Source: Escherichia coli (GTDB taxonomy: Bacteria > Pseudomonadota > Gammaproteobacteria > Enterobacterales > Enterobacteriaceae). From it: 64,000 bases of DNA. The position numbers were made by a program. Each line of letters opens with the position of its first letter. Within the stretch, counting starts at the first letter, position 1. Shown here piece after piece: positions 24,001 through 27,000 of this stretch. Location of the stretch: the NCBI RefSeq assembly GCF_003991155.1, contig NZ_CP031293.1, one strand, 5' to 3'.

Positions 24001-27000
24001 AAATAGCTCGCCGTCTGCGCTCTCTGATCGAGAAAGAGGGCAATATGAAGGTGTACATGACGCGCAATGAAGACATCTTCATTCCGTTGCAAGTACGCGT
24101 AGCAAAAGCCCAGAAACAGCGTGCTGACCTGTTTGTCTCTATCCATGCCGACGCCTTTACCAGTCGTCAGCCGAGCGGTTCCTCTGTGTTTGCGCTCTCA
24201 ACCAAAGGTGCAACCAGTACTGCGGCAAAATATCTGGCACAAACCCAGAACGCCTCGGACTTGATTGGTGGCGTGAGCAAAAGCGGTGACCGCTATGTCG
24301 ACCACACCATGTTCGATATGGTGCAGTCGCTGACCATTGCCGACAGCCTGAAGTTTGGTAAAGCGGTGCTGAATAAGCTCGGTAAAATCAACAAGCTGCA
24401 TAAAAATCAAGTTGAACAGGCCGGGTTTGCCGTACTAAAGGCACCAGATATTCCCTCCATTCTGGTCGAAACGGCGTTTATCAGTAACGTTGAGGAAGAG
24501 CGTAAACTGAAAACGGCGACTTTCCAGCAGGAAGTTGCGGAGTCTATTCTTGCGGGAATTAAAGCGTATTTTGCCGATGGGGCGACGCTGGCGAGAAGGG
24601 GATAATGTTTTTATTTATTCAATGAATTTATATTTCGTTGAATAGATAACATTTACCTGAATATTAGACGCTGGTTTTGTGACTGATGTCGGATATTTGA
24701 ATGTCGGCTTGAAAAATAAGCCGACCATCTCTTTAATTAAGCACAATTCCGTGTAATGTATATGCATTAGTTAATCATCTTGTAACTGTTAAATCAGGCA
24801 AGGCAATGTTTGAAGTAATTATTACTTCTGACGTGCCTTGCCTTTTTTTTTGGAGCTATGGAATGATCATCGAAAAAGTCATGAACAATAATTGTGTACA
24901 GGCATCGATGAATGGACAGGAGGTTATCATTTCTGGGCCTGGCGTCGGTTACAACAAAAAATATGGAATGTCGGTCCCTGAGCATCCGGCTAACAGAGTT
25001 TTTTATGTCAGAAATGAACAAAAAAACAAACTCTATAAATTGATCGAACATGTGGATATTGAGTATGTGTTTGTTGCCGAAAAGATAGTGTACTACGCGG
25101 AGTGTAATCTTGAAAGAAAGTTAAATCCATCGCTATTGCTTATTCTTGCCGATCACATTTCAAATGCAATATCCAGAGTCTCCTCCGGAATACAAATCAA
25201 TAATTTTTTTCTTGAGGAAATCAAAGCGTTGTACAAAGCAGAATATGCAATAAGCCGGGATGCATTAACCATCATCAATGAGCAATTTAGCTTTCAACTT
25301 CCGGATGATGAGATTGGTTTTATTGCATTGCATATTTTAAATAACTATGAAAATTCATCTGATTATGAATCGGTACGGATTATTGAATTATCTCAAAAAA
25401 TCACGGAGATTATCGAGGGTATTTATAACCGAAAGGTGGACAGAAGTTCATTTAACTATTCAAGATTTATGATGCACCTTAAGTATTTTTCTAATCGAGT
25501 TTTATGTAATGAAAAGATAAAACAGAAAGATATTGGTGACATCTATGAGCAGTTTCTTGAGAAAGACATTCTGTTACAGCGCGCAATTCATGAAATCGAA
25601 AGGTATTTGTACGCCACTTTTAAATATGAATTGATTTTGGAAGAAAAACTATATCTCTCTATTCGCACCAAAGTATTAATGGACTAATTATATATAACAT
25701 TTATATGAGATAACCCGCATGAAACAAAAGAAAGCCTGGAGTTTTTTTCAGAGCCTGGGGAAGGCATTTATGTATCCCATTGCTCTGCTAAGTGTATGTG
25801 GCATGATGCTAGGGCTGGGAAGTGGTTTAGCCAGTGATGATATGGCAAAGTTAATTCCATTTCTGGCTATTCCAATAATTAAAACCATACTTGATTTCAT
25901 TGTTAGCCTTGGTTTGTTTGCCTTTGTTAATTTACCTGTATTGTTTGCGATAGCAATTCCCTTAGGATTATTAAAAGAGAAAGAGGATAAAGCCTATGGC
26001 GCTTTTTCTGGCTTAATTGGTTTTATGGCGATGCATCTGGGAACGAACTTTTATCTTAAACAGCACGACTTATTGGTCGCTGCTGACCAAATGTCGACAC
26101 ATGGGCAAACCATCATTCTGGGGATCCAGTCCTACAATACCAGCGTGTTAGGGGGAATTGTTGCTGGGTTATTAGTCGCCAGCATGTATAAAAAGATCGT
26201 TAATTTACGCATTCCAGAATCATTAGGTTTTTATAGCGGCCCACGTCTGGTGCCTATCATTACACTGATTGTGATGAGTGGATTTGGTCTGATCATTCCT
26301 TTTATCTGGCCGCCGTTTTTCAATCTCTTCATGCTCATTGGCCACTGGATATCAACTTCCGGTCCTGTTGGTTATTTCTTCTATGCAGTTGCCGAACGCG
26401 TGACGATTCCTTTTGGCTTAAACCATCTGGTGACGTCAGTTTTCCGCTTTACGCCAATCGGCGGTTCGGCTGTGATTGGCGGCGAAGAGTATTATGGCAC
26501 CCTGAACATGTTTATGGCGTACGTCAAAGAGAATGCGGTCATTCCGCTGGATTTGGCGGGGAAAATGGAACAGGGCAAACTGATGATTCAGTATGGTCTG
26601 GCTGGTGCCGCGCTGGCGATGTATCGCACTGCTCATGCTCAAAACAGAAAAGCTATCAAAGCATTGCTTATTTCCGGGGTGCTTACAGTCATTATTGGCG
26701 GCGTCAGCGAACCGATTGAGTTTCTGTTCTTATTTGTCAGTCCACTGCTGTTTGTCTTCCATGCATTTATGAATGGATTCGCCAACATGGTCTTGCCATA
26801 TATGGGCGTGAAGATGGGATTTACTGGCGATCTGATTCAATTTATTAGCTTTGGCGTATTGCGTGGCACAAGAACAGGTTGGCCAATAGCGGTGTGTGTC
26901 GAAGTGGCCTATTTCTTTATTTATTACTTTGTGTTCCGTTGGACTATTCTTAAATTTAACCTGATGACCGTAGGCCGTGAAGAGTCCAGTCCTGTCACGC

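Follow-up and report, generated by a model that had tools for sequence, protein, structure and literature searches.

What controls the expression of the AT-rich five-gene insert that follows amiC in the Escherichia coli chromosome and whose first gene encodes an antiterminator of the BglG family? The question is raised by a 64,000-nucleotide stretch of contig NZ_CP031293.1 (assembly GCF_003991155.1), here called the window, in which a sequence-only reading had placed a ribonucleic antiterminator (RAT) motif and an intrinsic terminator at 24777-24862, directly ahead of that gene. Our analysis makes it very probable that this leader is a RAT/terminator attenuator of the BglG/SacY class, which controls in cis what appears to be the paf operon, responds to the sugar phosphotransferase system (PTS), is positively autoregulated and is off by default.

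The coordinates and sequence first given for the leader are borne out: the RAT blocks, the pairing arms, the nine T, the GGAG and an in-frame ATG at 24863 are all in place (Table 1). The core blocks of Bgl/Sac-type RATs, UUGUAACUG...CAGGCAA, lie in an imperfect hairpin with the layout U-C-UUG / UAA / CUG [UUAAAU] CAG / G / CAA-G-G, in which TTGTAACTG occupies 24780-24788 and CAGGCAAGGC 24795-24804. On its own this hairpin is weak (-6.3 kcal/mol by folding). The terminator had been described as an 8-bp stem; its eight-pair arms, GGCAAGGC (24797-24804) and GCCTTGCC (24835-24842), and its nine T are present, but the real stem is larger and comprises 21 pairs with interruptions, the basal nine to ten being A-GGCAAGGC-A with U-GCCUUGCC-U and the apical hairpin GAAGUAA/UUACUUC. 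For the 98-nt leader, folding gives -30.3 kcal/mol (z = -4.4), a stability reached by none of 200 shuffled sequences. A simple terminator scanner gave no call at the leader because the stem is interrupted; it finds the uninterrupted 20-pair version of Atlantibacter.

The 3' strand of the RAT hairpin and the 5' strand of the terminator have 8 nt in common, 24796-24803, which confirms the overlap that had been noticed, and since this segment belongs to both structures the two folds are mutually exclusive. The RAT/terminator overlap of licS is likewise 8 nt (PMC5393181). The comparison of folds that had been set as a check of this architecture was in its favour: in a 76-nt construct the terminator conformer has -28.1 kcal/mol as against -18.0 kcal/mol with the RAT pairs enforced. 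The RAT-enforced fold retains a residual hairpin which stops 6 nt (CUUGCC) before the U tract and therefore has no terminator geometry. These two-conformer energetics hold in eight leaders, namely those of the window, of strain CFT073 and of six orthologous loci. As first read, the T run, which reaches 24851, passes straight into the ribosome binding site. From its end to the ATG there are only 11 nt, so that no promoter fits 3' of the terminator, and expression of the antiterminator gene would therefore depend on read-through.

Is the hairpin at 24778-24803 a RAT in the sense of those that have been characterised? The pattern TTGTNACTGN6CAGGCAA occurs exactly once on the two strands of the window, where 0.16 matches would be expected even with two mismatches allowed, and a chance origin of the core pattern is thus unlikely. 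As reference we used seven RATs, those of K-12 bgl (t1 and t2) and five adjoining licT homologues in Clostridium tertium and Thermoanaerobacterium thermosaccharolyticum, and built from them a covariance model, R1, with the paf site excluded. A 30-mer of the paf site aligns base for base with bgl t1, UUGU.ACUG and CAGGCAA being identical and equally spaced, and t2 is in register too. Out of both strands of the window R1 ranks 24780-24801 first (16.3 bits, rough E of 0.01, model positions 4-26), and it likewise ranks the paf RAT first in the 49-kb CFT073 locus and in each of six orthologous loci (15.9-17.7 bits). The conserved core of the RAT hairpin (a hairpin of about 29 nt), UUGUxACUG...CAGGCAA at fixed spacing, is therefore recognisable at 24780-24801, as is the upper asymmetric internal loop, UAA (24783-24785) opposite G24798, flanked by UUG/CAA and CUG/CAG. 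Position 8 of the RAT, canonically U or G, is here A and in Atlantibacter C. The Rfam scan of 20-36 kb gave nothing at 24700-24900 even at E <= 10, which means that none of the 4227 curated families matches the site and does not exclude a RAT. Elsewhere in the window weak RAT-like matches were seen at 9715-9742, 29636-29675 and 43301-43322, all on the minus strand, with 13.4 bits in R1 (E of about 0.1) or two core mismatches; these and their like in the CFT073 locus are at chance level.

Of 5426 complete E. coli genomes, 1688 carry a region of 1095 bp comprising leader and antiterminator gene, with an identity of 89-100% (at least 99% in only 42), and the leader is near-invariant among alleles which differ by up to 11% over this region: in seven E. 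coli alleles only two positions vary between the RAT and the U run, both in a pairing-compatible manner. A 41-mer around the RAT, which is unannotated, recurs with 100% identity in 1413 of these 1688. BLAST of this 41-mer against all 5426 genomes, which detects near-identical copies only, gave one copy per island-bearing genome and no second RAT. Among 1691 copies of the locus one is on a plasmid. In NZ_CP054388.1 (H45) the antiterminator gene matches in two separate places, which suggests an interruption, and in NU14 (NZ_CP019777.1, L006) it is 12 nt shorter.

Orthologous loci were found in E. whittamii, two Citrobacter species, Atlantibacter hermannii and several metagenomes, with an antiterminator identity of 94-95% in E. 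whittamii and E. coli E69 and of 77-80% outside Escherichia. A supposed intermediate homologue of 53% identity (L014) was discarded, as it appears to be the E. coli locus copied with many errors. In the Citrobacter- and Atlantibacter-type loci the gene order is kept as far as the DNA reaches, that is for the first four genes. Upstream of the Citrobacter-type loci lies a gene for an LTXXQ-domain protein instead of amiC, and homology starts about 50 nt 5' of the RAT; the element is therefore a part of the operon rather than of amiC. In the comparison of 11 distinct leaders the RAT core shows a single substitution, in the loop, of A24784 by C in Atlantibacter. The terminator, on the other hand, changes and is maintained by compensation: 94.8% of its cells are paired across the 11 sequences as compared to 28-56% for slid controls, and no shuffle attains its covariation score. 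G-C is replaced by A-U at 24803:24836 in five sequences and at 24812:24828 in two, 24807:24833 occurs as four pair types, and in Atlantibacter the stem has been rebuilt with 19-20 uninterrupted pairs. The G to A change at 24803 also preserves the RAT pair with U24778 (U.G to U-A). Eight or nine T are kept in every orthologous leader. This is the picture of a genuine, selected intrinsic terminator.

The gene behind the leader encodes a member of the BglG family, as had been claimed, with a CAT domain and the two regulatory domains PRD1 and PRD2. Pfam finds CAT_RBD at residues 1-55 (E = 3.6e-14) and PRD at 73-160 and 178-251 (E = 1.3e-21 and 0.0024). In NCBIfam the protein scores higher against LicT (228 bits) and GlcT (182 bits), both below their equivalog cut-offs, than against BglG (102 bits), and its matches in the PDB are LicT, GlcT and 6twr, 'Beta-glucoside bgl operon antiterminator BglG family'. 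His98, His157 and His205 align with His100, His159 and His207 of LicT in all orthologues. The fourth site, His269 in LicT, is Arg (residue 268) in the PafR family and Asn in BglG, so that both lack the second PRD2 histidine. All PafR orthologues carry the CAT motif GPGVGYNKK (residues 24-32) where LicT has GRGLAFQKK, and thus have Pro, Tyr and Asn at the positions of LicT Arg27, Phe31 and Gln32, of which Arg27 and Gln32 have been singled out as specificity determinants (PMC3105407). This conserved variant suggests a separate RNA specificity. A cognate antiterminator with CAT and two PRDs, conserved histidines in both PRDs and an adjacent PTS permease gene are thus all found next to the RAT.

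Several observations weigh against this interpretation of the leader. The resemblance to Bgl/Sac RATs, which had been called close, holds for positions 4-26 and for the alignment of the core with bgl t1 and t2 and does not extend to the lower half of the hairpin: the canonical basal G1G2/C28C29 stem and the A-rich lower internal loop (A/U3 opposite R26-A27) are absent, and both are needed for binding by LicT (PMC5393181). Correspondingly the R1 match is local (positions 4-26 or 4-28) and modest, about 16 bits as against 38-47 for canonical RATs, which were training sequences, and 22.7 for a divergent clostridial RAT, which was not. All eight RAT pairs are invariant in the 11 sequences, and because they never vary covariation neither supports nor tests the RAT fold; the orthologue set is moreover narrow (five lineages) and the covariation counts are small. 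No convincing promoter is evident, as there is no consensus sigma-70 site on the plus strand in E. coli, nor in Atlantibacter or the orthologous locus L015. Finally, the literature consulted contains no experimental datum on the leader.

How, then, is the lower half to be understood? In the predicted fold it is fully paired, C24779 with G24802 and, potentially, U24778 with G24803. In B. subtilis numbering the site has C3, A8 and G26, and its UAAA top is closed by U.U. It resembles the sacB RAT in G26, in the pyrimidine at position 3 and in UAAA; specificity is determined mainly by position 26 and the lower loop, and the ptsG RAT also deviates in its lower loop (PMC1635312). The lack of the canonical lower half suggests a variant in specificity that diverges about as much as the ptsG RAT. 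What speaks for the RAT itself is a degree of sequence conservation such as would be expected of a protein-binding site, and the paf site is most readily viewed as a genuine but divergent RAT, probably with a specificity of its own.

Could the hairpin and its U9 tract be an ordinary constitutive terminator or insulator, which ends transcription from amiC or shields the island, with the RAT-like bases as a relic or coincidence? The terminator is strong by itself, amiC ends just 170 nt upstream, and the modest, partial match to the family model and the lack of covariation in the RAT pairs would suit such an explanation. Yet the element accompanies the antiterminator gene into loci in which the LTXXQ-domain gene has the place of amiC, and amiC already has a separate hairpin after it (24703-24725). 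No other non-coding stretch is as conserved as the RAT block, which stays fixed while the terminator arms change, an exact match to the core by chance is very unlikely, and a constitutive terminator so close to the start codon (11 nt), which leaves no space for a promoter behind it, would shut down an operon that is kept intact in 1688 genomes all the same. We consider this explanation improbable.

A slightly poorer case can be made for a functional RAT whose main partner is a different antiterminator, for instance BglG; this would wire the operon into beta-glucoside signalling instead of self-regulation. The core bases are common to the paf RAT and bgl t1 and t2, and in B. subtilis cross-talk of BglG-family proteins with non-cognate RATs is documented (PMC1635312, PMC3105407). 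But the lower loop and basal stem, the seat of specificity in the systems studied, differ from those of the bgl RATs, the CAT domain of the PafR family has its own conserved variant, RAT and antiterminator gene are co-inherited across genera, and bgl is silent in most E. coli (PMC2646131); such wiring seems very unlikely. That the leader is coding, with the longest open reading frame in a mechanical list (24806-25687, 293 aa, in frame with the gene) as the true antiterminator gene and the 'terminator' inside it, is hardly credible and this extended frame was rejected, for its ATG reads ACG in Citrobacter MGH106, L016 and Atlantibacter and has no usable ribosome site before it, leader indels are not multiples of three, the CAT domain begins at residue 1 of the 274-aa protein and RefSeq annotates the 825-nt gene.

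Upstream of the RAT, conservation resumes in the block that we presume to contain the promoter (Table 1), and it does so in Citrobacter and metagenome loci which have a different upstream gene. Weak -10 candidates in this block are TAATGT (24754-24759), with an invariant CAT at 24765-24767, or CACAAT (24742-24747), with which a position scoring 9/12 is aligned in Citrobacter. A possible CRP half-site, TGTGA at 24678, was dropped as not convincingly conserved. A 9-bp hairpin, GTCGGCTT...AAGCCGAC, with a poor T tail lies at 24703-24725 on the plus strand, 100 nt past the amiC stop and just before the block conserved in Citrobacter; it may be the terminator of amiC or mark the island boundary.

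We thus favour a RAT/terminator attenuator that would work as follows. Transcription would start somewhere in 24726-24777, and the nascent leader would first form the weak RAT hairpin. If no protein were bound, the terminator's 3' arm would then displace the 3' strand of the RAT, and the 21-pair stem with U9 would release the transcript at about 24851, leaving pafR and the genes behind it unexpressed. An antiterminator dimer bound via its CAT domains would instead hold the RAT closed and withhold 24796-24803 from the terminator base; with the residual hairpin 6 nt away from the U tract, RNA polymerase would read on into the genes for the antiterminator, the permease and three enzymes. As for the signal, we infer sugar- and PTS-dependent read-through by homology: by analogy with BglG/BglF and GlcT/PtsG, the idle EIICB permease, the presumed sensor, would phosphorylate His98 and His157 of PRD1 and thereby inactivate the antiterminator, transport of the substrate would reverse this phosphorylation, and His205 of PRD2 may need HPr-dependent phosphorylation. 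Since the antiterminator gene lies behind its own terminator, such an arrangement forms a positive-feedback loop that is off by default.

The genes that would be placed under this control lie on the plus strand in an insert with a GC content of 33-47% as compared to 51-57% in its flanks. The order in the window is recD, argA, amiC (ending at 24605), the AT-rich insert with its five genes, antiterminator first, the three metZWV tRNA genes (31246-31539, minus strand) and mltA. No further RAT or terminator lies in the 31-nt gap between the antiterminator stop codon and the permease gene. The permease consists of EIIC and EIIB domains, the latter with the CxTRLR cysteine motif, and has no EIIA. 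The KpsF/GutQ-like protein matches only the first approximately 200 of 321-328 positions of the KdsD/GutQ models, that is the SIS part, and presumably corresponds to c3406 of CFT073, reportedly a 'unique arabinose 5-phosphate isomerase' (Mosberg 2011). Along with the lyase of PatB type and the dehydrogenase of PGDH type, this isomerase suggests an unusual PTS substrate. An IS30-family transposase gene (NCBIfam 309 bits; open reading frame 30176-31177, plus strand) fills 30093-31245, the gap between dehydrogenase and metZWV; there is none at this spot in NZ_AP021933, where the gap is 78 nt, nor in CFT073, where the paf cluster is separated from metV by a type VI secretion system (T6SS) cluster. 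The GcvB small RNA gene was found at 35863-36000 (minus strand, Rfam 143 bits, truncated where the scanned stretch ends) in a K-12-type context.

Table 1. Features of the leader and of the operon behind it, in window coordinates
Feature	Position	Strand	Basis
Conserved non-coding block, presumed promoter region	24726-24777	+	
RAT-like antiterminator hairpin, imperfect (core 24780-24801)	24778-24803	+	Fold; register with bgl t1/t2; top R1 match
Intrinsic terminator stem-loop, 21 pairs, interrupted	24796-24843	+	Folding; compensatory changes
Segment common to RAT 3' strand and terminator 5' strand, 8 nt	24796-24803	+	
Terminator U tract, nine T	24843-24851	+	
Shine-Dalgarno GGAG (24852-24855) and start codon ATG (24863-24865)	24852-24865	+	
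BglG/LicT-family antiterminator gene, 274 aa (825 nt), putative pafR	24863-25687	+	RefSeq start in identical genomes; domains
MalX-like PTS EIICB permease gene, 526 aa, putative pafP	25719-27299	+	NCBIfam malX-type IIBC, 539 bits, below cut-off
PatB/MalY C-S lyase gene	27293-28474	+	
SIS-only KpsF-like sugar-phosphate isomerase gene, 198 aa	28477-29073	+	
PGDH-like 2-hydroxyacid dehydrogenase gene	29136-30092	+	

In CFT073 the five genes lie in identical order beside amiC, at the end of the metV island near the T6SS cluster, and the antiterminator architecture matches as well; the locus is the c3405-c3410 cluster of the metV island of uropathogenic E. coli (UPEC). From this position and the gene content we infer that the first two genes are pafR and pafP; the primary paper on these genes reportedly states that the RNA targets of PafR are unknown. 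The cluster c3405-c3410 has been listed as 'PTS system, maltose/glucose specific' and as kept in UPEC, E2348/69 and SMS-3-5 (PMC2831201), in agreement with which E2348/69 is among the genomes that we found to carry the locus. The names pafR and pafP were given to a regulator and a permease of the metV island which are reported to be needed for urinary-tract infection of mice, PafR being a transcription regulator of the island (PMC8882828); it has also been called an antiterminator (PMC9981650). According to PMC4468546, PafR is 'expressed only in vivo' and not in urine, which fits an attenuator that is off by default.

How does this leader compare with known systems? Its closest counterpart in the same species is bglGFB, which has the same order of promoter, RAT overlapping a terminator, antiterminator gene and PTS permease gene, likewise keeps the antiterminator gene behind its own terminator (t1) and also lies in AT-rich DNA. 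It differs from paf in its second RAT/terminator, t2, between bglG and bglF, and in its beta-glucoside EIIBCA permease as opposed to a MalX-like EIICB. The paf RAT, in turn, lacks the GGA...AAACC base of the bgl RATs, has A and not U at position 8 and carries the U.U-closed UAAA top. With sacB/sacPA of B. subtilis, compared here by the description in PMC1635312 only, the paf RAT has G26, the pyrimidine at position 3 (sacB) and the UAAA top in common, and the CAT domain of PafR has Pro at the position of LicT Arg27 like Pro26 of SacT and Asn at that of Gln32 like SacY; the organism and the sugar are different, there is no basal GG/CC stem, and Tyr replaces the 'strictly conserved' Phe31. The nagY-nagE operon of E. 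faecalis is similarly an autoregulated operon of antiterminator and permease genes with a link to virulence, and its leader, like that of paf, has a poorly conserved RAT overlapping a Rho-independent terminator with compensatory mutations (PMC9981650). It differs in its Gram-positive host, its GlcNAc permease, its 172-nt 5' untranslated region and the fact that binding has been demonstrated experimentally (Kd 4 nM).

Beyond these enterobacteria the identity of the antiterminator drops abruptly to 35-37%, the closest relatives being LicT proteins of the licT-bglP loci of clostridia and Thermoanaerobacterium. Three of these loci (L021, L023 and L025) have, like paf, a RAT and terminator upstream of the antiterminator gene itself, and two intergenic RATs of C. 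tertium carry the same UUGUAACUG variant as the paf RAT. L021 and L025 differ in having canonical RATs (38-47 bits as compared to 16-18 for paf) and further RATs between licT and bglP. In L023, the closest clostridial relative (35% identity), there is, as in paf, a single control point, followed by the antiterminator gene and, 45 nt later, a PTS gene. Here (3355-3391 and 3501-7334) a divergent RAT (22.7 bits) with its terminator stands ahead of the antiterminator gene, and genes for an EIIBCA PTS protein and an ADP-ribosylglycohydrolase come after it. The clostridial PTS genes differ from those of paf throughout, as they encode EIIBCA together with a GH1 phospho-beta-glucosidase or, in L023, the ADP-ribosylglycohydrolase. 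A RAT-terminator ahead of an antiterminator gene is thus not novel, bglG t1, nagY and the three clostridial loci being alike in this respect, and mechanistically nothing is added to the BglG/SacY paradigm.

The value of the finding is practical and not conceptual. Both pafR and pafP have been reported to be necessary for full urinary-tract virulence of CFT073 (PMC8882828), and the leader could explain the apparent silence of paf in vitro; the model predicts that reporter fusions which contain it would be dark whatever the activity of the promoter. It also gives PafR a candidate cognate RNA target, and the sequence and structure signature of the RAT could be used to seek other PafR targets and cross-talk with BglG. 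More tentatively, and with the odds in our view somewhat against it, the closed lower loop, C3/G26, A8 and the absence of a GG/CC base may define a distinct RAT specificity class, matched to the GPGVGYNKK variant of the CAT domain and insulating the antiterminator from BglG, and the site may be the direct RNA target that has long been sought for PafR. In combination with the self-locking of the gene behind its own terminator, this would account for the apparent silence of paf in vitro and for its activation only in the host, and the signature could define the true PafR regulon.

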